The notes: generated from the letters alone by a model not told the origin. Counted from the stretch's first letter, positions 13,177-64,000 are shown. The stretch: DNA of 64,000 bases from a virus (IMGVR_UViG_2778261638_000005:1-64000), one strand, 5' to 3'. Program-made: numbers and translations.

Positions 13177-13781
13177 CAGGACAACCTCGCAATGGTAAAC
13201 TCATCAACCGGTGGCTGTGGTTCCTGTGATTCATTCTGGCTATGCGAGCCAGCACTAAGAATCACGCGATTGTACATATTGAGGGCAAACGTACCGAGGT
13301 CTGCATTCCCAGTCAGCGCCATGTTAATAGCTGCCGCAAGACGCCAGGCCAACGCCTCCATAAAAATGGCATCAAACATGTTCACATCTGTAACGCGAGA
13401 GACATACTTGAGCCATGCCTGAGGCTGGTCTGTGTAGATCAACTTTCCTGTTCCGTTGGTGTCTGCACCAACTTCGTACTGAACGCGCATTGCTGCTGTT
13501 GGATTGCGTACACCAGGAAGCATAATTTCAGTAATGCGCAGACAATCGGACGGGTACTGATACGCATATTCCCAGTCAGGCGGTGGATTGCTCGTATCTG
13601 CAAGCGACACGCGTTTGGTAGCAAAGTTCCAGTCAAAATCAGAAAGCACAGCATCACGGCAGGCCTCAAAGTGCAGCGAACATTCCCCCGCTTCCTTGCT
13701 GGCTTCCGTCAGGCTGTTAATGCTGCGGCTATTGCCAATATTGGACAGCGCACGATTGCAGATCTCTACTACAGAGGCCAT
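13176..13781 (-). CDS. Tail tubular protein A-like (201 aa)
   Basis: About 200 aa, N-terminal pattern NRALSNIGNS reminiscent of T7 gp11-family adaptor proteins; precedes the 823-aa gene. Confidence 0.5.
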   Translation of the reverse strand: MASVVEICNRALSNIGNSRSINSLTEASKEAGECSLHFEACRDAVLSDFDWNFATKRVSLADTSNPPPDWEYAYQYPSDCLRITEIMLPGVRNPTAAMRVQYEVGADTNGTGKLIYTDQPQAWLKYVSRVTDVNMFDAIFMEALAWRLAAAINMALTGNADLGTFALNMYNRVILSAGSHSQNESQEPQPPVDEFTIARLS

Positions 13782-14104
13782 TACTCACCCCCATTGCCGT
13801 ACAGGGTTTCAGCCGCTGATTTTTCTACATCCCCGGAAACAGGAGCGATCGCCATATCAGTGATCTGCAGATCGGCGCTGCGATTAACACCATCGTCAGT
13901 TTCTCTGGCAGACAGGCCTCGAATAACAGCCTTTGCAGTTATCATCACTTCTGTTCCGACGCCCTGAGGTTGCGCCTTCAGCTTATTCAATGTGTCGTTA
14001 TTAAGAGTGATGCACAGCCCCCACGGGTATTCATCGCGAGTTCTGGTTTCTCCGCTCTCATCCTGGTAGCTGTCAGTGCCGGTTTTGAGGTTTACGAGTT
14101 CCAT
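13781..14104 (-). CDS. Hypothetical virion protein (107 aa from ATG 14104; frame opens at GTG 14110)
   Basis: AGGAG RBS 6 nt upstream of ATG; in virion module. Confidence 0.4.
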   Translation of the reverse strand: MELVNLKTGTDSYQDESGETRTRDEYPWGLCITLNNDTLNKLKAQPQGVGTEVMITAKAVIRGLSARETDDGVNRSADLQITDMAIAPVSGDVEKSAAETLYGNGGE

Positions 14105-14116
14105 ATACACTCCTGC

Positions 14117-25563: not shown

Positions 25564-25640
25564 TTACCCCTGAGGTAATTAAAAACCACATAAGACACGA
25601 AATCAATAGATTTTAGAATATTTCATTACCCAGAAGGTAA
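25564..25640. promoter_or_regulatory. Third copy of regulatory cassette: palindromes TTACCCCTGAGGTAA (25564..25578) and TTACCCAGAAGGTAA (25626..25640) flanking a TTGATT-17-TTTAAT promoter-like element
   Basis: Minus-strand reading: TTGATT, 17 nt, TTTAAT, then the palindrome overlapping the leader/RBS of the DUF1064-like gene. Confidence 0.5.
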
Positions 25641-25785
25641 TTATTGAGGCGTAAAAAAATGCGCTATCGCGCTGGTATTACTTGATAAATCCTGCCGCCT
25701 TTCCCCGCCTGTATTCCTCCATCAGCCACTGCGCCGGTGTTATTCCCCCCAGGGTGGCGGCGTTAGGCATGCACTAAAGCGCGCA

Positions 25786-25859
25786 AAATCATTTGATACC
25801 GTTTTGAATTTTTTTTGATACCACCCAAAACGGCACAACGAAAAATTATTTGATACTAA
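25786..25859. repeat. Right-end transposase-binding-type repeats (ATTTGATAC motif x3)
   Basis: AAATCATTTGATAC 25786..25799, TTTTGATACC about 25814..25823, AAATTATTTGATACT 25843..25857; inverted relative to the left-end copies. Confidence 0.6.
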
Positions 25860-26593
25860 TCGGGAGTGCTTTTAGGGTATGGCTGAACCCTGAATAGCTT
25901 AGTATTTAGCCGCTTCCTTGCTCGCTTGTTCAGGAACCTGATGTAGCGATACTGATTAAATTTGTGCACCACGGCACGCTCTTTATTAGCCCGTAAATAC
26001 ACGCCTCGTTGTCCACCGCGCTTAATTGCGTTCATCGTTATCTCGTGATACCACTCACCATCCAGCTCGTAGAACGTGCTTTCATGGCTGCCAATAAAAT
26101 CAAAATTCGACGCCTGATACACAACGCCTGCGCGTCCGCAGCGTTCGTCAGCAAAGGACTGAACCCACTCCACTGACGGATACAGTAATCTGATAACTTT
26201 CAGCGCGTAGCTGATGGCCCGTGATTCAGAGTTGCGGGGCATGTCGTCGTGTAGCCACATGCGATTCAACTCCATATAGCCCCGGTTATCCGTTTCAAGC
26301 ACGACACGACGACCTGAGTTGGGGTTAAGGGCATATCCCCACTGGAGAACGCCAACCAGATCGCGTCCGCTGAATACTCCCAGGTGGAGGTAAGAGTTAT
26401 TCACAAAACGGCGGGAATAGTGCTTTGTCTGAATAATTGTGCGGGCCAGCCAGCAGGATATGGTTTCAACGCGCAGCTCCTTTGAACCATAGCCAACAAT
26501 CTGGCCTTCATACTCAATAACGCACGGTTTCGTCAGAATGCGTGATTTTTTCTCTTTTCCCACAATGTTTCTCCGTGGGATGCTCGCAGGCAT
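25856..26593 (-). CDS. mom: Mom DNA-modification protein (start codon uncertain)
   Basis: Directly downstream of and overlapping com, last gene before the element end as in Mu; about 245-aa ORF. Confidence 0.7.
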
Positions 26594-26702
26594 TCAGCAT
26601 TATGATGTGACGTTTGCAACGCGGACACCTGATTTCAATGTGATCAAAGGAATCCGCCTTAAATAACAGTTTGTTGCAGTTTTTACAGCGAATTGATTTC
26701 AT
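26514..26702 (-). CDS. com: Com zinc-finger translational activator of mom (62 aa)
   Basis: [32 protein letters not shown]..., Cys4 zinc finger, 62 aa, overlaps mom start; matches my recollection of Mu Com. Confidence 0.85.
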
Positions 26703-26776
26703 CTCACCTCCTTTGCATCAATTCGCCACTATCTTAAAAAACATCATGGGTTGAGTGTGGTTATTGGGGCATAATC

Positions 26777-26811
26777 GATCTGTATTACCGATCGATTTAA
26801 TTGATTCGATC
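26777..26811. promoter_or_regulatory. Cluster of three GATC (Dam) sites upstream of com-mom (Mu Pmom-type regulatory region)
   Basis: GATC at 26777, 26790 and 26808 within 35 bp; in Mu the equivalent cluster governs methylation-sensitive repression of mom. Confidence 0.65.
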
Positions 26812-27378
26812 GTCGTTTTCTATATGCGCTCGTTTCGCGGGGTGTTTTTTATACAGAGTTGACAGGGCCACATCGTAGATCAATGCAACCTGCTTGCGGG
26901 GGATTCCTTGTGCTAATAAACGCCCGGCCTGCTCCCATTCCGCTTTGGTTAGTTTAGGTGGTCGCCCACCAATACGGCCTTTATTTCTGGCGGCAGCAAG
27001 TCCAGCCATCGTTCGCTCGATGATTAGTTCTCGTTCCATTTCAGCCAGGGCACCCATAACGTGGAAGAAAAAACGCCCCATTGGAGAAGATGTGTCTATG
27101 CTGTCGGTCAGACTGCGAAAATTAATCCCTCGCTCCCGTAGTTCCCCGACGAGAGAAATCAGATGTTTCATGCTTCGCCCGAGGCGATCCAGTTTCCAGA
27201 CAACCAGCGTGTCACCTTTTTGAAGGCGCTTTAAAGCGCGTTTTAATCCCGGTCGGTCTGTCTTTGTCCCGCTTAATTTATCTTCAAATATTTGTTCACA
27301 TCCTGCACAAACAAGAGCGTTTCGTTGCAGGTCTGTATTCTGGTCATTTGTTGATACCCTTACATAGCCAATCAGCAC
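26797..27378 (-). CDS. gin: Serine DNA invertase, Gin/Hin/Pin/Cin family (193 aa)
   Basis: N-terminus MLIGYVRVSTNDQNTDLQ with catalytic Ser, C-terminal HTH; adjacent to invertible fibre segment. Confidence 0.9.
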   Translation of the reverse strand: MLIGYVRVSTNDQNTDLQRNALVCAGCEQIFEDKLSGTKTDRPGLKRALKRLQKGDTLVVWKLDRLGRSMKHLISLVGELRERGINFRSLTDSIDTSSPMGRFFFHVMGALAEMERELIIERTMAGLAAARNKGRIGGRPPKLTKAEWEQAGRLLAQGIPRKQVALIYDVALSTLYKKHPAKRAHIENDDRIN

Positions 27379-27432: not shown

Positions 27433-27460
27433 TTATCTAAAACCTCGGTTTACAGGAAAC
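27433..27460. repeat. gix-type recombination site (left inverted repeat) TTATCTAAAACCTCGGTTTACAGGAAAC
   Basis: 26 of 28 nt identical to the reverse complement of 30496..30523; fits gix/hix-type crossover sites. Confidence 0.8.
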
Positions 27461-28463
27461 GGTAAACAGGGCTGGTAACGCCGTTCAAAAGACAGGCGAT
27501 ACCTTATCCGGTGGGCTTACTTTTGAAAACGACTCAATCCTTGCCTGGATTCGAAATACTGACTGGGCAAAGATTGGATTTAAAAATGATGCCGACAGCG
27601 ACACAGATTCATACATGTGGTTTGAAACAGGCGACAACGGCAATGAATATTTCAAATGGAGAAGCAAACAAAGCACCACAACAAAAGACCTGATGAATCT
27701 TAAATGGGATGCTTTGTCTGTTCTTGTTAAAGCCCTTTTCAGCAGTGAAGTAAAAATATCGACAGTCAATGCACTGAGGATATTTAATTCATCTTTTGGT
27801 GCCATTTTTCGCCGTTCTGAAGAATGCCTGCATATCATCCCTACACGAGAGAATGAGGGGGAAAATGGTGATATAGGGCCACTACGTCCCTTTACGCTTA
27901 ATCTCAGAACTGGCCGCATAACTATGGGGCATGGTCTGGATGTTACAGGAGATATAACAACTAACGCCTGGGTGTATGCAAACAGGTTTGCTATTAATAG
28001 TGGCTCAACCTCATGGATTGATATGCGAAACCAGAATGTCATTTTTGGTAGAAACGCAGTATCAACAAGTTCTGCGCAGGCTTTGTTAAGACAAGACCAT
28101 GCAGAACGCAAATTTTTTGTCGGTGGACTTGGTAACTACCAGTTTGGTTTTTACATGATTAATAACTCAAGGACAGCCAATGGCACCGATGGTCAGGCGT
28201 ACATGGATAATAACGGTAACTGGCTTTGTGGCTCGCAAGTTATTCCTGGCAACTATGGCAATTTTGATTCCAGATATGTGAGAGATGTTCGCCTGGGTAC
28301 GCGAGTTGTTCAATTGATGGCGCGTGGTGGTCGTTATGAAAAAGCCGGACACGCAATTACCGGATTAAGAATCATTGGTGAAGTAGATGGCGATGATGAA
28401 GCCATCTTCAGGCCAATACAAAAATACATCAATGGCACATGGTATAACGTCGCACAGGTGTAA
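27441..28463 (+). CDS. Alternative tail-fibre C-terminal segment (Sv'-like), promoterless in the present orientation
   Basis: Frame is open back through the gix site (starts NLGLQETVN, the same junction peptide found in the expressed fibre); ends ...INGTWYNVAQV like the expressed fibre. Confidence 0.7.
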   Translation, partial: NLGLQETVNRAGNAVQKTGDTLSGGLTFENDSILAWIRNTDWAKIGFKNDADSDTDSYMWFETGDNGNEYFKWRSKQSTTTKDLMNLKWDALSVLVKALFSSEVKISTVNALRIFNSSFGAIFRRSEECLHIIPTRENEGENGDIGPLRPFTLNLRTGRITMGHGLDVTGDITTNAWVYANRFAINSGSTSWIDMRNQNVIFGRNAVSTSSAQALLRQDHAERKFFVGGLGNYQFGFYMINNSRTANGTDGQAYMDNNGNWLCGSQVIPGNYGNFDSRYVRDVRLGTRVVQLMARGGRYEKAGHAITGLRIIGEVDGDDEAIFRPIQKYINGTWYNVAQV

Positions 28464-28994
28464 ATGATGCAGCATTTAAAAAATATTAAGTCTGGAAATC
28501 CTAAAACGAAAGAACAATATCAGCTAACAAAGAATTTTGATGTTATCTGGTTATGGTCCGAAGACGATAAAAACTGGTATGAGGAAGTGAAAAACTTTCA
28601 GCCAGACACAATAAAGATTGTTTACGATGCAAATAATATTATTGTCGCCATCACTAAAGATGCCTCCACGCTTAACCCTGAAGGTTTTAGCGTCGTTGAG
28701 GTTCCTGATATTACAGCCAACCGCCGCGCTGATGATTCAGGAAAGTGGATGTTTAAGGATGGAGCTGTAGTTAAACGGATTTATACGGCAGACGAACAGC
28801 AACAACAGGCCGAATCACAAAAGGCCGCATTGCTTTCCGAAGCTGAATCAGTCATCCAGCCGCTGGAACGCGCTGTCAGGCTGAATATGGCAACAGACGA
28901 GGAACGCACACGACTGGAAGCATGGGAACGCTACAGTGTTCTGGTCAGCCGTGTGGATACGGCAAATCCTGAATGGCCACAAAAGCCTGAATAA
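28464..28994 (+). CDS. Tail-fibre assembly protein (U'-like), 176 aa
   Basis: Paralog of 29023..29556 (shared motifs [36 protein letters not shown]). Confidence 0.75.
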
Positions 28995-28999
28995 AAATT

Positions 29000-29019
29000 A
29001 AGGCCCGCTATCGGGCCTT
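29000..29019. terminator. Bidirectional hairpin AAGGCCCG-CTAT-CGGGCCTT between convergent tail-fibre assembly genes
   Basis: 8-bp stem; A/T-rich flanks on both sides. Confidence 0.5.
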
Positions 29020-29022
29020 GTC

Positions 29023-29556
29023 TCATTCAGGTTGTTCGGGAAATGTTACTGGCAGGCTGGAGGTGTCTGTAGATTCGACTTTCTGCGCATAGAGCATCCA
29101 CTCAGTTAATTTTTGTTTATTCTCGTCGGAAATGATGCCCAGCCGTAGCTGTGAGTCCCATAGCTGGGTTTTATCCCTGACAAGTTGCAACAGGCTTTGT
29201 TTTTCATTCTCTGCCTGCTGCCTTTGTTCCTCCTCGGTATAAGTTCGCTTTATCACTACGCCATCTTTGAACATCCATTTACCCGAAATATCAGCCCGGC
29301 GATTTGCTGTAATATCAGGAACCTCAACGACGCTTGCGCCTTCTGGATTAATTGCTGAAACATCCTTTTCAATACAAATAATAACGTCGTTGTGGTCATA
29401 GACCATTTTCAACGTATCAGGCTGAAAGTTCTTTTGTTCCTCATACCAGTTTTTCCCATCCTCTGTATAAAGCCATTTGATGTTAAATTGTTTCGTTAGC
29501 TGGTATTGCTCTTTTGTTTTAGGGTTGCCAGCAGTAATGTTTTTTAAGTGCATCAT
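29023..29556 (-). CDS. Tail-fibre assembly protein (U-like), 177 aa
   Basis: Follows the expressed tail-fibre gene; paralog of the + strand copy. Confidence 0.8.
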   Translation of the reverse strand: MMHLKNITAGNPKTKEQYQLTKQFNIKWLYTEDGKNWYEEQKNFQPDTLKMVYDHNDVIICIEKDVSAINPEGASVVEVPDITANRRADISGKWMFKDGVVIKRTYTEEEQRQQAENEKQSLLQLVRDKTQLWDSQLRLGIISDENKQKLTEWMLYAQKVESTDTSSLPVTFPEQPE

Positions 29557-29558
29557 CG

Positions 29559-31019
29559 TTAAATACTCCCCGCGTTATACCACGTCCCATTAATGCAATA
29601 CTGAATTGGCCTTGCCTGAGTTGTATCAATTAATTCATCACGGTTTCCGTTAACTGAACCTGTAACGACATAACCTGACCTGTCAGACCAGCCGGGACCA
29701 TTCCATGTCTGAACAGATGACAGACCGCCCAGGCGAATACCTGTAATAAACCTTGAGTTACATTCTGCCTGCGTATATGCACCAACATCCCCCGCAGAGG
29801 GTTTGCGGGTTGTGGTGTAAAACTCTGACCAGTTAGCTTCAAAGCCATAACCATCACGCGCTGAACGATAAAAGATACCGCCGTTCTTATAATTCACGCG
29901 GAACTGTACAGCAGGGCAACTCCCCGCATTCATATTGAAGTGGAGGATTAATGTCGATGCGCCACTGATATCTGCATCATAAACGCCGCTATTCCAGTTC
30001 CAGCCAACAGCTTTATCATTTGCAACCCTGCTTCCTGTTTGCCCTAAAGCAAATGCAGGCTGCTGGTTTTTCGTGTTGTAGTCTCTTCGCCAGCCAGGAG
30101 CATAAGCATCACCATGATTAATATAAGTGAATTGAGCGTTAGTAATTCCGCCACCGCTGGACGTGCTCGGGGTGGTTACACGGATGGTCATGGCTCCTTT
30201 ATTACCCATAACCTCAATAACGCAACCTGCAAGATGAATAGTTCCACAGCCAGTATCGGTAATAATTTTATTATTGCCGTATGACCATGAACATTTGCAC
30301 ATCCAGTATGGGTGATTGAATGCCCCTTGAGAATCCAGCCATTCAATCAATTGTGCCGTCGTCCAGTTTCCTGCACCTGTGCTAATAGCACTGTGAAAAG
30401 CGCGACATGCACCAATATTTTTTGTGAAAGTATCTTTTCCTGGAATATCTGCGCCGTTCTGGTTTTTCTGTAATGCGCCAGAAGCCTGATTTACCGTTTC
30501 CTGTAAACCGACGTTTTGGATAAACAGCGGCTTATTGGGAATATCTGCTCCGTTCCGGTCTTTTGCCAGACGGGCATTGGCATTATCCATCGCAATTTTC
30601 ACCGCTTTTGCGGTGGCTGCCAGCGTTTCACTGGGGCTGTCAGTGGCACTGGTTAGCTGAACGAGTCCTTTTTTGTTCAGGCTGGCATCATAGATATCCA
30701 GATTTTCACGTGCTGTACGCTGTGCTGATGCCCCGGCAGTTTTAATTTCACTGAGGTTATTTTTTATCAGCAGCGCGTTATTGCTCATAATGGCTTTAAT
30801 GGACAGTGCAAGCTGGTTTAATTTTGTTTTATCCGGTTGAATACCGGCTTCTTCCAGCGTGTTTAATAACTCCGCCTGCACAATATTAAACCAGTCCATG
30901 CCGGGCCATGTGATAACATTATTCCCGTCACCTTCTGAAAACCAGCGAACGATAGCACTACGCTGGGCGGATACGGGCGGCATGACGGTTACGCCGCTGT
31001 CGTTATCAATATAAAACAT
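29559..31019 (-). CDS. Tail fibre protein (S-like), 486 aa; constant N-terminus outside and variable C-terminus inside the invertible segment
   Basis: gix site lies in codons for GLQETVN at 30496..30523; repeated NGADIP(N/G)K motifs. Confidence 0.8.
   Translation of the reverse strand: MFYIDNDSGVTVMPPVSAQRSAIVRWFSEGDGNNVITWPGMDWFNIVQAELLNTLEEAGIQPDKTKLNQLALSIKAIMSNNALLIKNNLSEIKTAGASAQRTARENLDIYDASLNKKGLVQLTSATDSPSETLAATAKAVKIAMDNANARLAKDRNGADIPNKPLFIQNVGLQETVNQASGALQKNQNGADIPGKDTFTKNIGACRAFHSAISTGAGNWTTAQLIEWLDSQGAFNHPYWMCKCSWSYGNNKIITDTGCGTIHLAGCVIEVMGNKGAMTIRVTTPSTSSGGGITNAQFTYINHGDAYAPGWRRDYNTKNQQPAFALGQTGSRVANDKAVGWNWNSGVYDADISGASTLILHFNMNAGSCPAVQFRVNYKNGGIFYRSARDGYGFEANWSEFYTTTRKPSAGDVGAYTQAECNSRFITGIRLGGLSSVQTWNGPGWSDRSGYVVTGSVNGNRDELIDTTQARPIQYCINGTWYNAGSI
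30496..30523. repeat. gix-type recombination site (right inverted repeat) inside the tail-fibre gene
   Basis: GTTTCCTGTAAACCGACGTTTTGGATAA, inverted copy of 27433..27460. Confidence 0.8.
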
Positions 31020-34789: not shown

Positions 34790-36269
34790 TAATCACCTCA
34801 ATACTGACACCACCGGGAACAAACAACGGGTTGCTGATACCGTTCCTGCGGGCCAGCCGTTGCCAGTTCCGGCTGTTTCCTGTGTAACGGTACAGAGCCA
34901 CCATTGCAGGCATCGTCTCCGGCAGGCGGTGCGTTTCACTGCCCGCCAGTTGCAGCCCGCGTTTTTCCAGGTCGGCAACAACCAGCAGACGCAGTTGCGT
35001 AAGCTGAACGCTGTCTGTCGAAAAGCCCTGCTCAGATGCCGTCAGAATGACGGTATCCAGCGCTGCCCCCAGCATGGTGGCTGTTTTTCCGATATCGGAC
35101 ACACTTTCAAATACCGGGGGCGTGGCTGTACCACTGTCTGAAAAGGATACCTGTGAAAAGCCGCCGTCCGGGGTTATGGCAGTTAACTGTAACTGTCCCT
35201 GTGTGACGGTAGCAGATGTGCTGCTGGCCCCGCTGGCTGTGCCGGTTGTGGTGGACGGAGCATCCAGTACAGGTGCACGGGCGGCATTATCCATCCGGCG
35301 ACTGAAATCCAGTGCCGCAGTCAGTGCCTGGCTTGCTGCCTCCGCCCGGTATGTCTGCGCCGCTGCCAGCATGACGTAGTTCAGTGTGGCAATATTTTTT
35401 TCTGCAACCGGACTGTTGTACGAGGTTGTGATTGTCCCCTGTCTGCCTGTGGTGGCGGCATGGCGACGTTCGAATCGCTGCGCCAGACGGTTCCAGGTGG
35501 AAAATGCTGTCCGGGTATCGCATAACGATGAAACGCCGGACAGCGCCCCCATCAGCGAGGAGGCCAGCATGGCAGGCTGGTTAATCAGGCTGGTCACAGA
35601 GCCTTTCATCGCAGAAAGCGATCCCATCAGACCGCTGACAGTCTGCGTAACCCCCAGATTGTCCACCGCATCACTGATATCATCGATGACACCGGTTACA
35701 GCTTCCATCACGGCGGTTGCCGCCGCAGTGCCATCTTTTACGGTCTGCCAGACAGAGGACAGCGTATCTCCCAGAGAACCGGTTACAGCAACGGCCTGTG
35801 CCGGTACGGCTGCACTGGTGTCTGTCTCTGAGTCCGGGGCAGTATCCTGCAACGACGGATAAACGGTAACGGTGAACGCGTAATAATTCAGTTCATCCGC
35901 TTTAGTGCGGCATTCCCATGAATCCACCATGACGTCCACAGTGCCGAAATCAGGATGTACCAGCTCACCGCTACCCGGAGCATCAAGAGCATCCATCAGC
36001 GCACCCGCTTCATCTCTGGCTGTTTCTGCGTTGCTGTTCAGAATGCAGGCGCTGAATGTACGGGAGCGAAGCTTTTTCCCCAGGTCATTGACGCCGCCGG
36101 TATCACGTAACGGGTACTCGCGTTTAACCAGGCGACGTCCGCCAGCCTGTTTTTGCTCCTCGATGACGAGAAACGGCACGTTACGAAACGTGCCTTTGCC
36201 GGTTGTTTTCTTACCACCGCTGATTTTATCCCGGACAGCATTAACGGCATTTAAAGCATCTTCAAACAT
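34782..36269 (-). CDS. DNA circularisation protein N-like (Mu gp43-like), 495 aa
   Basis: Position after tape measure; Ala/Thr-rich middle typical of the family. Confidence 0.65.
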
Positions 36270-52091: not shown

Positions 52092-52514
52092 TTATTTTGG
52101 GCTTTCAGGTGAGAACAGATCAGGCTGATGACGTCGTGTATGCAGCTTTCTCTGGCGGGCAATAATCTGGTAGATCTGCGGCTGGGACAGGCGGTACTGG
52201 CGACGCAGTTCTTCCATGTTACGACCATTAAACTGGCAGTAAAGCAAATCGTCACGTAACGCGGTCAGGATCGTATCGCCGCAGGGGATGTAAAACTGCC
52301 GTCCGCCCAGAAAACAGGACAGGGCAACGGCCTGTTTACGGGCAAGCTCACGGGGATTGCTGACGTTCTGGCGTTTCAGTTCGTTTTCCAGAACATCAAT
52401 CAGATCAACCACCGAACGGGGCCAGCGTGATTCCAGTTCCGGGGCCGGGATGTTATCAATATGTCCGATTAACTGGCGAATTGCCGGATCGTGTTCAAAT
52501 AAATCATGCTGCAT
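52092..52514 (-). CDS. Late-gene transcriptional activator C (Mor/C family), 140 aa
   Basis: Paralog of 53493..53882; C-terminal HTH; position directly upstream of lysis genes as in Mu. Confidence 0.7.
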   Translation of the reverse strand: MQHDLFEHDPAIRQLIGHIDNIPAPELESRWPRSVVDLIDVLENELKRQNVSNPRELARKQAVALSCFLGGRQFYIPCGDTILTALRDDLLYCQFNGRNMEELRRQYRLSQPQIYQIIARQRKLHTRRHQPDLFSPESPK

Positions 52515-52526
52515 ATTTTCCCCCGG

Positions 52527-52646
52527 TTAACAGACAGAAAGATACACCACGGCACTGATGGTTATCAGAACCACAAGGGCAATCACTTTTATCGCACTCA
52601 TCAGCGTGGACGGCCCGAAACATTCATCACTGAATTTTCTGTACAT
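52527..52646 (-). CDS. Possible 39-aa single-pass membrane peptide (MYRKFSDECFGPSTLMSAIKVIALVVLITISAVVYLSVC)
   Basis: Short ORF in the gap between GH108-like gene and C; one hydrophobic helix; weak RBS. Confidence 0.25.
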   Translation of the reverse strand: MYRKFSDECFGPSTLMSAIKVIALVVLITISAVVYLSVC

Positions 52647-52849
52647 GGTATTTTTCTCTGTAGCGCCGGCAATGGTGGATAATTTCTGGCATATCAACGG
52701 ACTGCCAGCCTTTCATGTAATAGCTCCCGTGGGTGCCATCGTGCCCTGTGTAATCCATTGGCTTTGGTGGCGGGCCTCCGGCCTCCCGATGTAATACCTC
52801 CTGTTGTAAACGTTCGCGCCTGCCGAACTGAAAGGACGCATCCCACCCT

Positions 52850-53410
52850 TTACCCATGCAGAACCTCCCGACAGGCGCTGGCGAGCAGATCCAGACGGTT
52901 AAACCAGCCATTCAGATATTTCCCCTGCGAGGCACTGGATTTGATAATCCCTGCGTAATAGCGGGAACGACGCAGGAAGCACTGCAACAGCAGCCAGTCA
53001 GTATCGGCACGCAGAACGGCTGCGCGTGTGTTTTTACCGACGATGCCATCATCATCAACACCTGCTGCCGCCTGGAGGATCTGAATCGCGCGTTTAACAC
53101 CGAGCTGAACGGCAGCATCAAAAACGAATAAGGAAACGCCATCAGGCCATTCGTTACACTTTGCCGCCAGCCAGTAATCACGCCAGTAGATCTGCGCCGC
53201 CTGCTCGCGGGTTAAATCCTTAATGCGGGTATCAGGTTTTCCGTCACCGTTAACATCGGTTTTGCCATCAATAACGCCGTCGCGACGGTCAGAGATACCG
53301 TATTTCGTTTCGCCGCCACGGTCAGTGGGATCATCAACATATCCACCTTCAACATCAGGTCGTATAACGAAATTCAGCGAATGAAGGAATGCAGGGGAAA
53401 ACTCAGGCAT
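52850..53410 (-). CDS. Glycoside hydrolase family 108-like muramidase with C-terminal peptidoglycan-binding domain (186 aa)
   Basis: Motif EGGYVDDPTDRGGETKYGI (GH108 signature) and DGIVGKNT (PG_binding_3-like). Confidence 0.65.
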   Translation of the reverse strand: MPEFSPAFLHSLNFVIRPDVEGGYVDDPTDRGGETKYGISDRRDGVIDGKTDVNGDGKPDTRIKDLTREQAAQIYWRDYWLAAKCNEWPDGVSLFVFDAAVQLGVKRAIQILQAAAGVDDDGIVGKNTRAAVLRADTDWLLLQCFLRRSRYYAGIIKSSASQGKYLNGWFNRLDLLASACREVLHG

Positions 53411-53492
53411 GTTGCCCTCCAGTCATGAACGTTTTGTCGTCACAACAGAATATTGAGGGCGTAAAAAAAGCCGGATTAACCGGCTTTACTGT

Positions 53493-54430: not shown

Positions 54431-54503
54431 GATCGTACCTCCGGAAAGGGGGCGGTGCTGCAACACCGCCTGTACTATTGATAACACTGAAAATGGAGAC
54501 AAC

Positions 54504-54743
54504 ATGTCTGTAGAAAACAATGCGTCAATCACTTTTAACCTGGTTTCAGGTCTGATGGTGAAACTTGTTCGTAACAAGATTCTGACAAAGTGGGAAGCTC
54601 AATCCATACTGGCCTCTGCAATTCTTGAAAACGTTCAGAACCAGGAGGGGGTTACTGATTCGGATCTTGATGCACTTCGTCTGAAACTTGCTATGTCGGA
54701 TTTCAGCGTTGAAAAAGAGCCTCCACAAGACGATCAGGCGTAA
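54504..54743 (+). CDS. Hypothetical 79-aa protein on the strand opposite to the Mu early operon
   Basis: ATGGAGACAAC-ATG (GGAG RBS) at 54504; overlaps the 3' end of the minus-strand gene 54703..54999. Confidence 0.4.
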   Translation: MSVENNASITFNLVSGLMVKLVRNKILTKWEAQSILASAILENVQNQEGVTDSDLDALRLKLAMSDFSVEKEPPQDDQA

Positions 54744-54999
54744 TCACGTCTGATGGTTTAAGTCCCAGCCTGCGGCGAATAAATGCGTCGCGGGCTTTTT
54801 TGTTATCCAGTGAAACTTCATCTGCAATAATATTAATTTCATGCTGGATAATATTCACAGTAACACGAGCAGAAAGCCCTTCACGGATAGCAATATCAAT
54901 AATATCGCGCATACGCTCAAGCATTTTAGCTTTCACCAGTTCTTCATCCAGGTCTTTAGGCGTAAATTTAGTTTCATTATTCATATTATTCACCTTCAC
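54703..54999 (-). CDS. Hypothetical early protein (98 aa)
   Basis: ORF in Mu semi-essential early region. Confidence 0.4.
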   Translation of the reverse strand: MKVNNMNNETKFTPKDLDEELVKAKMLERMRDIIDIAIREGLSARVTVNIIQHEINIIADEVSLDNKKARDAFIRRRLGLKPSDVITPDRLVEALFQR

Positions 55000-55168
55000 A
55001 ATTCATGCACGCCGTGTCATCGCCCATATCGCAGTGGTTGCATTTCAGCCCGCCACAATGAGGGCACTCTTTCAGATATTCAGGGGCTTCATTACCGCAG
55101 GTCGGACATGCCTGTTTCACCGTGGTAAATTTCCCCAGCCACGAATACGATGTTTCATTGTTTTCCAT
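54986..55168 (-). CDS. Hypothetical zinc-ribbon protein (60 aa)
   Basis: CPTCG...CPHCG...CNHC...CMNC motifs. Confidence 0.4.
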   Translation of the reverse strand: MENNETSYSWLGKFTTVKQACPTCGNEAPEYLKECPHCGGLKCNHCDMGDDTACMNCEGE

Positions 55169-55706
55169 TGTTTACCCCCGCCTGTTCCAGTGCCATAACT
55201 GGTGCGTCAGAACAGTCAAGAATGAGATAGCGCAGTACATGGTCGGTGATATTCCATGCGTTTGAGCTGCAAATAAAACGCCCTGGCCGGATATCAATAT
55301 AAGCCATCACAAAACGGGGCATTCCCTGTTCGCACATCCTGTTATCCACTTCTGCAACGATGTGAACGGATTCACAGGTCAGCACGCCCGTTGCAAACTC
55401 TTTTGCCAGCGCGGGGATGGTATTACCTTCCACCCAGGGTAATGAGCGACGCCAGTTGCACCACACCGCATCATCAACAGCAGGCTGCTCAGTTGCGTTT
55501 CGTCTTACAGGCGGCGTCGGACGTGGGCGCGGAACGTCATAAAATCCGTTGCATTCGGTGAGAACACCGGCATCAACCGCATCACGCAGGAAATACACCA
55601 TTGACGAGGGCAGCATATTCATTTTTTCAGCCAGAACCCCGCAGGTCAGACGCCCGTAAGCCCGTAATAATGTGCTGACACCATTCAGAACTTTTGCATC
55701 AATCAC
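55155..55706 (-). CDS. Hypothetical early protein (183 aa)
   Basis: ORF, translationally coupled. Confidence 0.45.
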   Translation of the reverse strand: MIDAKVLNGVSTLLRAYGRLTCGVLAEKMNMLPSSMVYFLRDAVDAGVLTECNGFYDVPRPRPTPPVRRNATEQPAVDDAVWCNWRRSLPWVEGNTIPALAKEFATGVLTCESVHIVAEVDNRMCEQGMPRFVMAYIDIRPGRFICSSNAWNITDHVLRYLILDCSDAPVMALEQAGVNNGKQ

Positions 55707-58381: not shown

Positions 58382-58392
58382 TATTTATCCCC

Positions 58393-59325
58393 TTACCACC
58401 AGTTCAGTAATTTCGGGTTGCTGTAAACCTCTTTAAAAGCTGCTTTAATGTAGCCTTTGGATAGAGGAACGCCTTTCCCGCTGGCAGCCAGCCACGCCTG
58501 ATTCAGCGTATGAGTTAATACACGTAATGCACCTGGTTTTTCCGCGATGCTCTGCATGAGTGATAATTCATCTTCGCCCTCAATGCCCCAGGCTTTCGCA
58601 ATTGCCACCACGTCAGCCTTTTTGGCTTTACGTAGTTGCTTTGTTCTGGCGAAACGACTGAACAAACGTGCAAGGTCATCTGTTCCCCGGTGTGTGGCTT
58701 TGGCTAACTGGTGTGGGTTGCCAATCAATACCATCCCGACGCCGGTTGCATCCTGAATGGCGCGTAACTGCTCCAGCCCGTCCATGCTCAGGTGGTCAGC
58801 TTCATCCACAATAACCAGACCGCGTGTGCCATTCAGTTTTTTGCGAATGGCGCGGGTCAATGCGCCTTTATTCCTTTGCGGATTATCAATTCCCAGCGCG
58901 TCTGCCAGCTCCAGCAGACACTCAGTCACTGTTGAGTGTGCAGGGGAAAGGGTCACCATCCAGGTATTAGATACACGGTTACTGTATTCACGGGCCGCAA
59001 CGGTTTTACCAACACCCGGCACACCAACCAGAACGCTGATACAGCCCATAACACGCACGGTCTGAAACAGCTCGCGCAAATCACGGAGGGTTTGTGTTTC
59101 CACAAGTTGTGGTGCGCCAGGTAACTCCAGACTTTTTTGCCAGCTCTGATGCCACATCAGTAATTTGTCATGCATCCCTTCGGTATCACCTTTGTAACGG
59201 CCTTTGCGAAGTTCAGAAAGAGTGGCCTCCGACACCCCCGCTTCTTTAGCAATAGCGCTTTGTGTTTTTACGCCGTCAGTAATAAGTGTGTTAATCGTGT
59301 TGAAAACATCATTAATATCGGTCAT
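58393..59325 (-). CDS. Transposition ATPase B (MuB-like AAA+), 310 aa
   Basis: N-terminal HTH, Walker A GVPGVGKT, Walker B VIVDEADHL; follows A. Confidence 0.85.
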   Translation of the reverse strand: MTDINDVFNTINTLITDGVKTQSAIAKEAGVSEATLSELRKGRYKGDTEGMHDKLLMWHQSWQKSLELPGAPQLVETQTLRDLRELFQTVRVMGCISVLVGVPGVGKTVAAREYSNRVSNTWMVTLSPAHSTVTECLLELADALGIDNPQRNKGALTRAIRKKLNGTRGLVIVDEADHLSMDGLEQLRAIQDATGVGMVLIGNPHQLAKATHRGTDDLARLFSRFARTKQLRKAKKADVVAIAKAWGIEGEDELSLMQSIAEKPGALRVLTHTLNQAWLAASGKGVPLSKGYIKAAFKEVYSNPKLLNWW

Positions 59326-59398
59326 ATTATTCTCCGTTTATTCAAATCAGCTTTGTTTCCTTCGTTTAACAGTCCGTTCCCGCGGACTGTTTTTTTAT

Positions 59399-61486
59399 TC
59401 AGGCCAGCGGATCATCCTGTTCCTGTATGGCTACAAGCTTCTGCAAACCCAGCCTGAAATCGCGTTCATAATCTTCGTCGTAATCCTCCTCATAATCCTG
59501 TTGCTGGATGGTTACCGTATTGCCAACCGGGCGATAAACATTATCCAGCCAGGGTTCAGCCTGTTTGTGCTCCAGTATCTGAATGCCTTCATCCTCAGCA
59601 TCACGAATTTTTTCCTCAGCACGTTTGCGCATTCCTTTAATACGCTGCTGTTGTTTGTGATATTCAGCACTGACAGCAAAGGCTGCGCGTTTATTGCCGT
59701 TCCATATCGCCTCACAGATAAAGCTGCCGTCCTTGCGACGTACCGTAATTCGCTCGGCGTCATGAATGTCATAACTGATAAGTACTTTGCGACCGTGTTC
59801 GTCACGCAACTCCGGCGCGTAGTAAATATTGTTCAGCCACTGAATTTCGCACCGTCTTACCGGGCGTTCCACCATCGGGCGGAACATGTCGCGCAGCTCA
59901 AGATCACTCAGCCACTCAATTTCGGTGCCTTCTTCTGCCAGGCGTTTTTTTCTGAACTCTGCCGGGCTGTAATGCCGCCCGTTCGGTTTCATTGGCAGCT
60001 CAGAATGCGGGCGGTTGTTGTACCATTCCACGCCTTCACGAATAGCCTCAATAAGCTCCGCCCACGATGGTAGCTCGCGCATTGCAGCTTTCTGGCGGTC
60101 GTTCAGAGGCTTGTCCTGTTGCATGGCGTTAAACGCTGAACGCAGATCACGGTTAAGTACACGCAACGATTCCCGGTCAGCACCCTTGCCAAAATAGGTG
60201 CGATACCTCCTGGCTATACGCATCGGCAGTGTCCGGTTCAGGCGTTCAATAATGCCGCGCCCCTGTGGATTACCGGCAATACCGGTAGGGTGTTTAATCC
60301 CCAGGCGGGGCAGAATACCCACGATCTCTTTGTCCAGTATGTCAGCCGTTTCACCAGAACCATTATCCGAGTAATACAGAAACGGTTTTCCGTGGTTGCG
60401 AATGCCGTGCTGTATCGCACCGGCAACGGCGAACACGTTCTCGGCAAGGTCAAGACTCCAGCCAACAACAAACCGGGTTCCACCGTCGATCACAAATGTA
60501 ACTTCCGGTGAGAATGGACGCCCGTGGATCGGATGTGCACATTTCAGCTTCATACCGTGACCGTCACCAATCCAGACATAATTCACCGGCATAGCTGTCC
60601 AGTCGCGGCGGGTGAATCCTTCAAGCTGACGGTATTCACTGCCGGTAACGCGCCCTTTTTGTTTCACCACTTCCGGCAGTTTTTTCATGGCATACCGGAC
60701 AACATCATAGGAAGGCATCACCTCCAGCATGTATGGTTCGTCCGCATGGCGACGCTGCCAATCAGCGACAAAATCCTCATAGGCTTCAGACATAGGCCTG
60801 CCGTTAGCCTGACGATACTGCGCCAGAAATTCAGGCAGCCAGCTAATTTCTTCCGGTTTTATTTCGTCGCGCTTTCCTGGTGCCAGTAACAGCAGTCGTT
60901 CTGCGGCATTCTGTGCTTTGTTAAACGCAGCTATCCAACGTTTGAGCGTAATTGCGCTCAGAGTTCGCTCTTTTCCTTTACGGGCATTAGCAGTAATGAC
61001 CAAAGATTCCAGGCGTTCTTCCAGGTTACCCTGCGCTAACCGCGACACAATAAAACGTATAGCGCTGGCACAACTGAATCCCGGCTCCTGGCTAATTCGT
61101 AGAACTTCACAGACAAGAGCAATGCGCGCTTCTGCAACTTTACGTTGATTTTCCGTAAGCGCATTCAGACGCTCTTCTACCAATTGTGGCGAACCGCGAT
61201 ATGCCTCAACAGGCTGTACAACATTTTGTTTGCGTTCACGCTTTACAGGAGGCTGGGTAGTTATCTCCCGCGGGGCGCTTGCCATCAGTTGAGCTACATG
61301 TCGCTCACGTAACGCCCGTTGTGTAACCGGAGGGAGGCAGTCGATGCTGTATTCAATGGTTTTTGAACCCGCACGTTTGCGCCTGAAATGCTCAGATGAG
61401 GCCAGTTTCCTTATGGAATACCGCACCCCTTGCGCAGTTCCCGGCATACCTGGTAACCCTACAAGCTCATTAACTGATACAAACAT
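59399..61486 (-). CDS. DDE transposase A (MuA-like), 695 aa
   Basis: Size, position after ner, N-terminal end-binding-type domain, acidic C-terminus. Confidence 0.85.
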   Translation of the reverse strand: MFVSVNELVGLPGMPGTAQGVRYSIRKLASSEHFRRKRAGSKTIEYSIDCLPPVTQRALRERHVAQLMASAPREITTQPPVKRERKQNVVQPVEAYRGSPQLVEERLNALTENQRKVAEARIALVCEVLRISQEPGFSCASAIRFIVSRLAQGNLEERLESLVITANARKGKERTLSAITLKRWIAAFNKAQNAAERLLLLAPGKRDEIKPEEISWLPEFLAQYRQANGRPMSEAYEDFVADWQRRHADEPYMLEVMPSYDVVRYAMKKLPEVVKQKGRVTGSEYRQLEGFTRRDWTAMPVNYVWIGDGHGMKLKCAHPIHGRPFSPEVTFVIDGGTRFVVGWSLDLAENVFAVAGAIQHGIRNHGKPFLYYSDNGSGETADILDKEIVGILPRLGIKHPTGIAGNPQGRGIIERLNRTLPMRIARRYRTYFGKGADRESLRVLNRDLRSAFNAMQQDKPLNDRQKAAMRELPSWAELIEAIREGVEWYNNRPHSELPMKPNGRHYSPAEFRKKRLAEEGTEIEWLSDLELRDMFRPMVERPVRRCEIQWLNNIYYAPELRDEHGRKVLISYDIHDAERITVRRKDGSFICEAIWNGNKRAAFAVSAEYHKQQQRIKGMRKRAEEKIRDAEDEGIQILEHKQAEPWLDNVYRPVGNTVTIQQQDYEEDYDEDYERDFRLGLQKLVAIQEQDDPLA

Positions 61487-61488
61487 TT

Positions 61489-61725
61489 TTATGCCACCTT
61501 ACGAGCGTAACGGCTGGGCCAGATCTCCTCCGGCGCAACACCAATAGCATCAGCAATAATGCGCTCATATTTTGGGCATTTGCGGTACAGGGCATTCTTT
61601 AAAGAATCCTGGTTTAAACCGGCTTCAATGGACAGAGAGCGTAAAGTAAAACCTTTTACATGCACCGCCGCGACAACATGCGCGGGGTGCCAGTCCTGTT
61701 TAACAACTTCATTTATAGACATCAT
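61489..61725 (-). CDS. ner: Ner-like DNA-binding regulator (78 aa from MMSINEV)
   Basis: C-terminal ...EEIWPSRY matches the Ner signature; AAGGA RBS before ATG 61725. Confidence 0.8.
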   Translation of the reverse strand: MMSINEVVKQDWHPAHVVAAVHVKGFTLRSLSIEAGLNQDSLKNALYRKCPKYERIIADAIGVAPEEIWPSRYARKVA

Positions 61726-61865
61726 TCGTTTATCCTTAAAAGTTATCTGCGCGGATAACACCGCCGGATAATCTCTACAGATAAATATTTGATCACTACA
61801 AAAGAAAAGTAAAGGTGTTTTATCTCTTTCTTTGGTTGTTTTTATCTACAAAAGGATATTTCTTT
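61726..61865. promoter_or_regulatory. Divergent early/repressor control region with repeated TTATC/GATAA half-sites (putative operators)
   Basis: TTATCTGCGCGGATAA palindrome at 61733..61748 and further GATAA/TTATC repeats between ner and c. Confidence 0.5.
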
Positions 61866-62450
61866 ATGAATCATATGGTTAACAGAAAAGAAAGAAGCAC
61901 TGAAAAAGAAAGTGATTTTTCTTTTCCTGTGTTTCAAAAAGAAAGCATTAAAGAGCGCCTAGCCATGCTAATGCGCGGGCGCTCCAAGACTGCCGTGGCG
62001 AAGGCGTGGGGGCTACCGTTCTCAACACTTAACAACTACTTTGAGAAAGATGCGACACCATCTCTACAAGTAGCTAGTCAGATTGCTTTTGCAGAAGGGG
62101 TGAGCATTGATTGGCTTGTTTTTGGCAAGGAGGATATAGAACCAATATCACCTAAAATAGATGAAAACGTCCAATTGCCCCTAGATATAACGCTACAGCG
62201 CCTTCTTGCTATACTAAGTGCTTTAGAAGCATCAGAGGCAGAGCGATTATCAAAAATCCTCGCGCTAAATGGAGCTAAGTACTTGTCACGGTTACTTGAA
62301 CCAGAGAATCAAGAACTAATCCAACTTGAAGGACGAAAACGTGCAGCAGCTCTACTTTTAGATCATTTATCGGATGAAAGAGTTAGAGAGATTTTGGCAG
62401 AAATTGAAAGCGATAAACTCTCAAGTAGTTTAGAATCGAAGGCGGGCTAA
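61866..62450 (+). CDS. Repressor c (Mu Rep-like), 194 aa from MNHMVNRK
   Basis: Divergent from ner at the element left end; N-terminal HTH-like segment; AAAGGA RBS. Confidence 0.6.
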   Translation: MNHMVNRKERSTEKESDFSFPVFQKESIKERLAMLMRGRSKTAVAKAWGLPFSTLNNYFEKDATPSLQVASQIAFAEGVSIDWLVFGKEDIEPISPKIDENVQLPLDITLQRLLAILSALEASEAERLSKILALNGAKYLSRLLEPENQELIQLEGRKRAAALLLDHLSDERVREILAEIESDKLSSSLESKAG

Positions 62451-62507
62451 TTCCAATAGCCCGCGGCTGGTTTTTTAACCTGTTTAAAACGTTAAAATCG
62501 CAGAAAT

Positions 62508-62672
62508 CAGTAGTATCAAATATTTTTTCGTTTTTAGCTTTCTTTGCGACAGTAGTATCAAATCACATGTTGTGCGCATAACACTGTTTTACGTCATAAC
62601 TGTTTGTTTTATCCCATCAAATCCCGTTTGATCCACTTTCCTCCCGGATTTTTCAGCAGTATCAAATGATTT
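62508..62672. repeat. Left-end transposase-binding-type repeats (CAGTAGTATCAAAT x3)
   Basis: Copies at 62508..62521, 62550..62563 and 62654..62667 (third is CAGCAGTATCAAAT); reverse complement of the motif at the right end. Confidence 0.6.
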
Positions 62673-63391
62673 ACCTCTCTATAGCACCCGAAACTTCGCC
62701 CTGGTGGATGGTAAACGTCTCTCCCTGTTTCCGGAGGCGTACTCATGGGTTCTGGCTTTGCCTGTATGCTGATCACCGGATCGGGTATCTGCTGTCCGGA
62801 AGCCACCTTTTTCGCCCAATCATCGAGCAGCCTGCGCGCGTGTTTCTCAACCTCAATCTCGCTAAGCTGGCGCTGATACATTGCACGGCGGGTATCACAT
62901 ACGACCCAGTACATAACCGGATGCCGCCACGGGAATCTTTCGGGACCACCAGGATATAAACTTTTTTCCTTGCTGTACCGGTGAAACTCCGTCATCACAT
63001 CGTCAATGGTGACGCCAAGAACCATCTTGCTGTCTTTGCACCACTTGATGAATTGCCCTGGCGACGGCCAGAACGGAGAATCACTGGCGCGGGCGTGGCG
63101 CATACCAGCAGAAACCTGTTCACGGGTTCGGATCCCCCCTTCAGCAAACGCAGCAATCCACTGCTGTTTTGCAGCAACTTCCTGCTCTGGCGTCTTCAGG
63201 TTGGTTACCACTGCCGCCGGAAACAGTTGTTTCAACTGTTTGAAAAGGGCATCAACAAGCCTCTCTGCTGACATGTTCACTACGTTGTCATTGTTGGTGT
63301 ACTGATGCTCATAACCTGACATGCGAGAAAGGGCCTCTCCGTCACGGTTTTGTATTGCGGTAAAAACGTTGTTCACAAGAAATCCTCCCAT
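62609..63391 (-). CDS. Lambda P-like replication protein (helicase loader); 3'-terminal about 25 codons derive from the Mu-like end
   Basis: VSAGMRHARASDSPFWPSPGQFIKWCKD aligns with lambda P VNAGMRVARRQNRPFLPSPGQFVAWCRE (recollection); reading frame runs across the inferred insertion junction. Confidence 0.7.
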   Translation of the reverse strand: MGGFLVNNVFTAIQNRDGEALSRMSGYEHQYTNNDNVVNMSAERLVDALFKQLKQLFPAAVVTNLKTPEQEVAAKQQWIAAFAEGGIRTREQVSAGMRHARASDSPFWPSPGQFIKWCKDSKMVLGVTIDDVMTEFHRYSKEKSLYPGGPERFPWRHPVMYWVVCDTRRAMYQRQLSEIEVEKHARRLLDDWAKKVASGQQIPDPVISIQAKPEPMSTPPETGRDVYHPPGRSFGCYREVNHLILLKNPGGKWIKRDLMG

Positions 63392-64000
63392 GCTTCAGGG
63401 CTGTTCCAGTGCGGAACGTTGTTATCAGGTAATGTTGATTGCTTCTGTCTGCTAATCTGCAGCCGCCTTGCCAGCTTCTGCTCCCACTGTGCCTGATGGT
63501 ATGCCTTACCCTCAGCCATCCAGTAAATTCTGAACTCTGCAAGTTCCTGTGCCGTTGGCAGACTGTCCAGGTAGATCCCCTGCAATGAGCTTTTCCGAAG
63601 AAAGTCATCTGATGGCTGCCATTGTTCATGCATGACAAATTTGCCTAATTGCCCTGGCCCACCAGGAGGAACAAAGTTATTCATCACGGCGTTGTTTGCG
63701 CCGGGGTCATGAGGCACAGAATTCCCGTTTTTTGTCCTGCTCTCCCTCTCTTGGTTAAATGACTGGTTATATGACTGGTTCTGGATCCCGTTTTTGGGAT
63801 CATTCAACATCCCGTTTTTGGGATCATTCAACATCCCGTTTTTGGTTATATTACCGTTTTCGGGAACATTACCGTTTTCGGGTTCATTCCCCCCTTCCCG
63901 GTTGCCTTTAATGTTCCCGTTTTTGGTTATATTAAGAGAGAAAACCCGCACTCTTTTCGTCGCTCCCTTTCTCTCTTCGGTATCTGAAATAAGCCCCATT
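63373..64000 (-). CDS. Lambda O-like replication initiator, C-terminal part (5' end outside window)
   Basis: Immediately upstream of P-like gene; coding region contains iteron array; Asn/Gly-rich repeats encoded by the iterons. Confidence 0.55.
   Translation of the reverse strand, partial: MGLISDTEERKGATKRVRVFSLNITKNGNIKGNREGGNEPENGNVPENGNITKNGMLNDPKNGMLNDPKNGIQNQSYNQSFNQERESRTKNGNSVPHDPGANNAVMNNFVPPGGPGQLGKFVMHEQWQPSDDFLRKSSLQGIYLDSLPTAQELAEFRIYWMAEGKAYHQAQWEQKLARRLQISRQKQSTLPDNNVPHWNSPEAWEDFL
63722..63936. repeat. Iteron array (ori-lambda-type) inside the O-like gene
   Basis: Core CCCGTTTTT(G)G about six times; two full 24-bp units (C/G)ATCCCGTTTTTGGGATCATTCAA at 63785..63832, each an ATCCC...GGGAT inverted repeat; A/T-rich on the low-coordinate side. 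Confidence 0.65.

Follow-up and report, generated by a model that had tools for sequence, protein, structure and literature searches.

Phage Mu keeps its mom gene under several layers of control, and mom expression is cited as dependent on Dam and OxyR (PMC3378877, PMC2909390). The mom promoter has been described as intrinsically poor, owing to a T stretch and suboptimal spacing, dependent on the phage activator C, governed by Dam and OxyR, and further repressed by Fis, with Com being needed for translation (PMC3378877). The target of Com is a hairpin described as 5'-GAAUGCCUGCGAGCAUCCCACGGAG... (PMC6483171), and both the Mu annotation and the literature take a GUG as the mom start, the ten extra N-terminal residues that an ATG start would add being dispensable for activity (PMC13219725). 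An earlier proposal for the chemistry of Mom involved acetyl-CoA and iron (PMC7261163), whereas the enzyme is now described as transferring glycine from Gly-tRNA(Gly) to adenine N6 within loose SASNY sites of double-stranded DNA, with the adduct rearranging to N6-carbamoylmethyl-adenine; residues W48, H58, Y59, R111, S124, D149, R151, Y159 and W181 are essential or important for this activity (PMC13219725).

Here, we examined a locus within a 64-kb stretch of viral DNA (64,000 nucleotides, hereafter the window) for which an earlier note had proposed a com-mom DNA-modification operon with a cluster of Dam sites. On the minus strand between 25600 and 27400, the order from 5' to 3' is gin, a 94-nt spacer, com, and a 245-aa mom ORF that overlaps com (Table 1). 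Judging from the sequence, the segment 25856-26811 (minus strand) is very probably an intact com-mom operon of the Mu type, a near letter-perfect copy of that of phage Mu, which would close the right end of a Mu-like prophage (25775-62683, minus strand) as its last transcription unit. No feature of the sequence speaks against this reading. The operon itself is ordinary, already known biology, with nothing new in it.

Table 1. Features of the com-mom locus and its carrier prophage, with the target duplications of four insertions
Feature	Position in the window or insertion site	Strand	Description
gin	26797..27378	-	193 aa G-segment invertase, upstream neighbour of the operon; Pfam Resolvase and HTH_7
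GATC (Dam) cluster	26777..26811		three sites, at 26808, 26790 and 26777
C-activator binding site core TTATGCCCCAATAACC	26759..26775	-	dyad TTAT-N6-ATAA; identical to Mu
mom promoter core	26711..26760	-	poor -35, T6 run, -10, inferred start, com ribosome-binding site
com	26514..26702	-	62 aa, CCCC zinc-ribbon translational activator of mom; ATG at 26702
Com-binding RNA hairpin region GAAUGCCUGCGAGCAUC	26579..26595	-	sequence equals the Com target quoted in PMC6483171
Translation-inhibition hairpin CCCACGGAGAAACAUUGUGGG	26559..26579	-	predicted fold; kept in diverged operons
mom	25856..26593	-	adenine-N6 hypermodification enzyme; 245-aa ORF from ATG 26593
Prophage right end (attR)	25775..25858	-	without homology to the Mu right end
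C, late transcription activator	52092..52514	-	about 25 kb from the operon, same prophage; Pfam Mor family, E=9e-34
Target duplication GTGC	flanks 62684-62690 and 25768-25774		comparison with the empty phiV10 site
Target duplication AGCC	glpT of E. coli WS1933D
Target duplication GTGA	ydcO of E. coli strain 1290
Target duplication TTAA	at patD in E. coli strain S6

Near-identity with the Mu operon and integrity of mom

We used phage Mu (AF083977) as the reference, counting nucleotide mismatches by ungapped comparison. The earlier note had suggested aligning the locus with the Mu mom promoter, com and mom, and this alignment ran for 440 nt (Mu 35643-36082) with 0 mismatches. The matching stretch begins in the last codons of gin, takes in the GATC cluster, the C site, the promoter and the complete com, and reaches 175 nt into mom. 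At the protein level, Com was identical to Mu Com (62/62), Gin matched Mu Gin at 192 of 193 residues, and Mom matched Mu Mom at 240 of 241 (K235R), followed by a 4-residue C-terminal extension, STPD; C, encoded in the same prophage, was identical to Mu C at 139/140 positions. By megablast, the gin-com-mom region showed 97-99% identity to Mu, D108, SfMu, PhiR68_1 and several Yersinia Mu-like phages.

Profile searches agreed with the proposal of a Mu-type operon, assigning the 245-aa ORF to the Mom family (PF25680, GNAT fold; E=3e-75) and the 62-aa ORF to Zn_ribbon_Com (E=2.7e-9). As NCBIfam holds no model matching Mom, Com or C, family membership rests on Pfam, PDB and the identity with Mu. The solved structure of Mu Mom (PDB 8BV8) was matched at E=3e-158, the only differences being the engineered S124A and K235R, and the residues required for activity listed above are all present in the window Mom (ATG-based numbering, as in PMC13219725). 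The ORF contains neither a frameshift nor an internal stop, so that both points on which the note had let its proposal stand or fall, similarity to the Mom family and an intact reading frame, came out in its favour. The zinc-finger Com of 62 aa, which it had placed over the start of mom, is also there, with cysteines at positions 6, 9, 26 and 29 and an overlap with mom of 80 nt counted from the ATG, or 50 nt from the GUG.

Codon differences between the window mom and that of Mu comprised 15 synonymous and 1 non-synonymous, and this ratio indicates purifying selection on Mom, with the constraint on the control region even stronger. The 440-nt control region is perfectly kept while the remainder of mom shows 2% silent drift, a small illustration of the tight constraint on the controls of a toxic gene. 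The operon is intact and almost certainly functional. The alternative is that it is a silent relic in a prophage that is defective or never induced, com-mom looking intact while having no function now, a view that could draw on the mosaic make-up of the prophage, with its foreign transposition and immunity module, and on its nesting within another prophage. We regard this as very unlikely, given that none of the Mu-sized ORFs from kil through mom is interrupted and that the 15:1 ratio in mom, together with the unchanged regulatory region, argues for continuing selection; furthermore, nearly identical elements sharing these ends occupy many different sites in E. coli, and also exist as plaque-forming Yersinia phages (PMC10434027), implying that the lineage is active.

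For a functional operon, the anti-restriction adenine modification proposed in the earlier note stands as far as the identity of Mom, judged by sequence, is concerned, whereas its chemistry has to be updated to glycyl transfer dependent on Gly-tRNA(Gly) (PMC13219725). Mom, with its GNAT fold, would glycylate adenine N6, and the final N6-carbamoylmethyl-adenine would shield packaged phage DNA from many restriction enzymes. The Mu-like prophage is likely to make restriction-resistant DNA once induced, phage or transduced DNA from the strain may resist many restriction enzymes, and the bulky adenine adduct may show in SMRT or nanopore data.

Promoter, GATC cluster and translational control

The string TTATGCCCCAATAACCACACTCAACC, located at window 26774-26749 on the minus strand, had been assigned in the earlier note to the C-activator site region of the Mu mom promoter, and this proved accurate: the string lies inside the annotated late promoter of Mu and in the published mom promoter oligonucleotide (PMC4461284). 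The Mu annotated late promoter (35693-35759) maps to window 26777-26711, and the window promoter equals the sequence of the 78-mer tin7 oligonucleotide apart from the T-to-G change of tin7 itself, the C-site sequence being present in the mom promoter oligonucleotides (PMC4461284). We placed the transcription start from the -58 to +20 coordinates stated for the 78-mer tin7 fragment (PMC3378877, PMC4461284), which puts it near G26724, downstream of a T6 run (26741-26736) and a -10 element, TAAGAT (26736-26731), with the C-site core at about -51 to -35. A consensus sigma-70 scan of 25600-26900 found no promoter, which is uninformative as a negative and fits a weak, activator-dependent promoter.

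The three GATC sites lie at 26808-26811, 26790-26793 and 26777-26780 (sites 1 to 3), 75-109 nt upstream of the com ATG (26702) of this minus-strand operon, and their reported positions within 35 bp were exact. Site 1 falls within the last codons of gin, and sites 1 and 2 each form a PvuI palindrome, at a spacing of 18 bp; PvuI digestion of the mom promoter has been reported to yield fragments of 60, 18 and 182 bp, with the same 18-bp spacing (PMC3378877). Statistics for the whole window did not single out the cluster: with 189 GATC in 64 kb, 52% of random placements yield at least one triple within 35 bp, so that the clustering is not significant at this scale. Because of this result, we moved the argument for the cluster to homology and comparative conservation, and its decisive support, as judged from these sequences, is homology to the Mu promoter and comparison with related operons rather than statistics.

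A second GATC triple, spanning 27 bp (13847-13873), falls within a 109-aa ORF (13781-14110, minus strand) belonging to the phiV10-like prophage that flanks the Mu-like element, and is probably due to chance. Across the Mu-like prophage (25775-62683), GATC is strongly under-represented: base composition would predict about 143 sites, and 79 are present. Its density is 2.1 per kb, compared with 4.1 per kb in the flanking prophage.

One could suppose that the cluster upstream of com senses no methylation at all and is a chance or otherwise motivated feature, arising for example from the gin 3' end or from PvuI-like palindromes; triples are expected about half the time somewhere in 64 kb, site 1 is part of the gin coding sequence, and the other triple has no evident role in the coding region where it occurs. 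We consider this explanation extremely improbable. The cluster is identical to that in the promoter region of Mu, where the dependence of mom on Dam and OxyR is known; the probability of a GATC triple, 0.15 for anywhere in the prophage, drops to about 0.0004 for the particular 109 bp that precede com; diverged operons retain sites 1 and 2 although the bases next to them vary; and GATC is otherwise depleted across the prophage. A Mu-like, methylation-dependent arrangement, as the earlier note had envisaged, therefore remains our reading of the cluster, suggested by its identity with the Mu promoter and by the retention of sites 1 and 2 in two diverged operons. A full-text literature search returned no text on three GATC sites together with mom, OxyR and phage Mu.

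Translational control can likewise be followed in the sequence. The Com target and the inhibitory hairpin, at window 26595-26559, are identical to those of Mu, and in the predicted fold the CCCACGGAGAAACAUUGUGGG hairpin holds both the Shine-Dalgarno GGAG (26574-26571) and the mom GUG (26563-26561), with the GUG in the stem, in agreement with the description in PMC6483171. The 91-nt RNA was no more stable than shuffled sequences (z=-0.59), and because its stability was within the shuffled range we do not take the fold as independent evidence; Rfam contains no family for either of the two RNA hairpins, the Com one or the inhibitory one, and a search against it gave just two chance matches below threshold. 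Since the GUG and GGAG lie in the inhibitory hairpin, as in the Com model (PMC6483171), the mom start in vivo is most likely GUG 26563, giving a product of 235 aa; the ATG at 26593 falls within the Com hairpin. The 245-aa mom ORF of the earlier note is thus open throughout (25856-26593), while the start that it implied is probably not the one used.

To compare this arrangement with more distant relatives, we scanned one genome per species for Mom; only three loci were returned, and the result is a small comparison rather than a survey. It included two diverged enterobacterial operons, from a Scandinavium MAG and from Enterobacteriaceae MGYG-HGUT-00110, with Mom about 82% identical. In both (L008 1150-1560 and L009 1150-1560), GATC sites 1 and 2 remain, as do the Com hairpin and the inhibitory hairpin that contains the GUG, and site 3 is retained in one and lost in the other. 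The promoter has mostly drifted in these two operons, and the C-site core CAATAAC is partly kept. Within this small sample (n=2), the pattern points to constraint on exactly the elements that the Mu model requires.

Taken as a whole, the elements suggest the following course of events. OxyR bound at the un- or hemimethylated three-GATC region would block the weak mom promoter, and Dam methylation would remove OxyR. Host Fis and the intrinsically poor promoter, with its T6 run and poor hexamer spacing, would deepen the silencing. Late in lytic growth, the prophage's own C would bind TTATGCCCCAATAA just upstream of the -35, recruiting and activating RNA polymerase. The com-mom mRNA would give Com first, and Com would bind GAAUGCCUGCGAGCAUC and melt the adjacent hairpin that hides the mom ribosome-binding site and GUG. 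We infer the operation of the Dam/OxyR, C and Com steps in this host from the identity with Mu, the host dam and oxyR genes being located outside the 64-kb window.

The carrier prophage and its transposition module

The Mu-like element extends from 62683 to 25775 on the minus strand (36,909 bp) and is colinear with Mu from position 4307, just after gene B, to 36598, that is, from kil through mom, at 94-98% identity, barring small replacements and the G segment. In the whole-prophage comparison, we found no DNA homology to Mu left of 4307 (left end, repressor, ner, A and B) or right of 36598. The non-Mu parts are found especially at 58390-62683 and 25775-25871, and comprise the repressor, a ner-like gene, transposase A, B and both termini. 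For the 695-aa transposase A, identity is 24% with the MuA core, 43% with SuMu, about 31% with transposases of the D3112 type and 97% with that of vB_YpM_5; for B, it is 44% with MuB.

At the right end, Mu homology stops precisely at the Mu mom stop codon (window 25872), and the window ORF goes on for four codons. The right end (25775-25858) carries three GTATCAAA repeats, the first of which overlaps the mom stop, and terminates in ...GCGCGCTTTA. This end module encodes STPD, the final four residues of Mom, and the first GTATCAAA repeat overlaps the new stop (window 25842-25872). The 81 bp that follow mom are unrelated to the Mu right end; Yersinia phage Tongde has an identical sequence there, and so do several E. 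coli prophages whose flanks differ.

The termini of the element read 5'-TATAGAGAGG...GCGCGCTTTA-3', with TA ends (62655-62683 and 25775-25800), and can also be given as TATAGAG...GCGCTTTA; a GTATCAAATGATTT repeat is positioned 25 nt from each tip. Phage Mu generates 5-bp target duplications and has CA termini (TG...CA). Here, 4-bp target duplications were present in 4/4 independent insertions, namely, the window compared with the empty phiV10 site and three others (Table 1). A 5-bp duplication, with or without shifted element boundaries, fits none of the four junction pairs and was rejected. So was the identification of the carrier as phage Mu proper, as the element departs from the MuA-type transposase, the TG...CA termini with Mu L/R binding sites and the 5-bp duplication that mark Mu. 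The paper on the Yersinia phages leaves ends and target duplications unmentioned and names the transposase once in passing (PMC10434027), and the SuMu paper contains no end or duplication data for comparison.

We tentatively propose, as a possibility that we rate at somewhat below even, that the prophage represents an undescribed transposition variant among enterobacterial Mu-like phages, in which the Mu kil-mom segment is fused, exactly at the mom stop, to a transposition and immunity module related to SuMu and D3112, with TA termini, 4-bp duplications, and a first right-end binding repeat that overlaps the mom stop and encodes the last four residues of Mom. Such a foreign transposition module, with its TA ends and 4-bp duplications, may be of interest to researchers working on transposable phages.

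The flanks, 1-25774 and 62684-64000, belong to a phiV10-like prophage (Uetakevirus, epsilon15-type), about 97% identical to phiV10 and to E. coli O157 typing phages 9 and 10. The Mu-like element is inserted in its lambda-P-type replication gene P, producing a nested prophage, and the junction of prophage within prophage was found in no complete E. coli genome of the collection searched.

Several further features set individual segments of the carrier apart. The invertible G segment (27433-30523) is in the opposite orientation to that in the Mu reference record and is partly diverged, with blocks at 87% and about 70% identity. One part matches the C segment of phage P7 at 97% identity, which suggests that the tail-fibre specificity differs. 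Mu homology is also weak or missing in short stretches (52643-53445 and 54472-55209) located between Mor and C and within the semi-essential early region. An example is a 186-aa ORF at 52850-53410, whose counterpart in E. coli WS1933D carries the annotation glycoside hydrolase family 108 protein.

Comparison with known systems

Beyond mom, the closest regulatory parallels are the agn43 switch of E. coli and the gtr switches of Salmonella and P22, which share with the locus the principle that Dam methylation of clustered operator GATC sites prevents OxyR binding (PMC2909390). Whereas agn43 and gtr are heritable phase-variation switches of surface genes of the host and of converting phages, the mom promoter also needs the phage activator C, and the mom message needs Com.

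Among phages, the com-mom region of Mu itself (AF083977, Mu_52/Mu_53 and the late mom promoter) shares with the window the order gin, promoter, com, mom at the right end, and the presence of C in the same phage. It differs in that the window mom carries K235R and 15 silent changes, and in that homology ends exactly at the Mu mom stop, beyond which the window ORF is 4 codons longer (STPD) and is followed by 81 bp of another right end. Phage D108 (GQ357916), 97.6% identical over gin-com-mom, likewise has an annotated mom ORF of 245 aa, and its DNA aligns about 14 nt past the mom stop, down to window 25842; on the basis of ORF length and DNA alignment, the STPD extension is probably common to both. 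However, in D108, mom is followed by the extra gene 56 and then by transposase-binding sites of the Mu type, whereas the window enters the non-Mu right end directly. The Yersinia phages vB_YpM_5, vB_YpM_6 and vB_YpM_Tongde, along with E. coli prophages such as those of strains WS1933D, 1290 and S6, agree with the window in the gin-com-mom region as well as in the non-Mu right end, and differ from it in their insertion sites. Tongde, in addition, differs by single bases in the interval from GATC site 1 to site 2 and in the promoter spacer, where the window matches Mu exactly.
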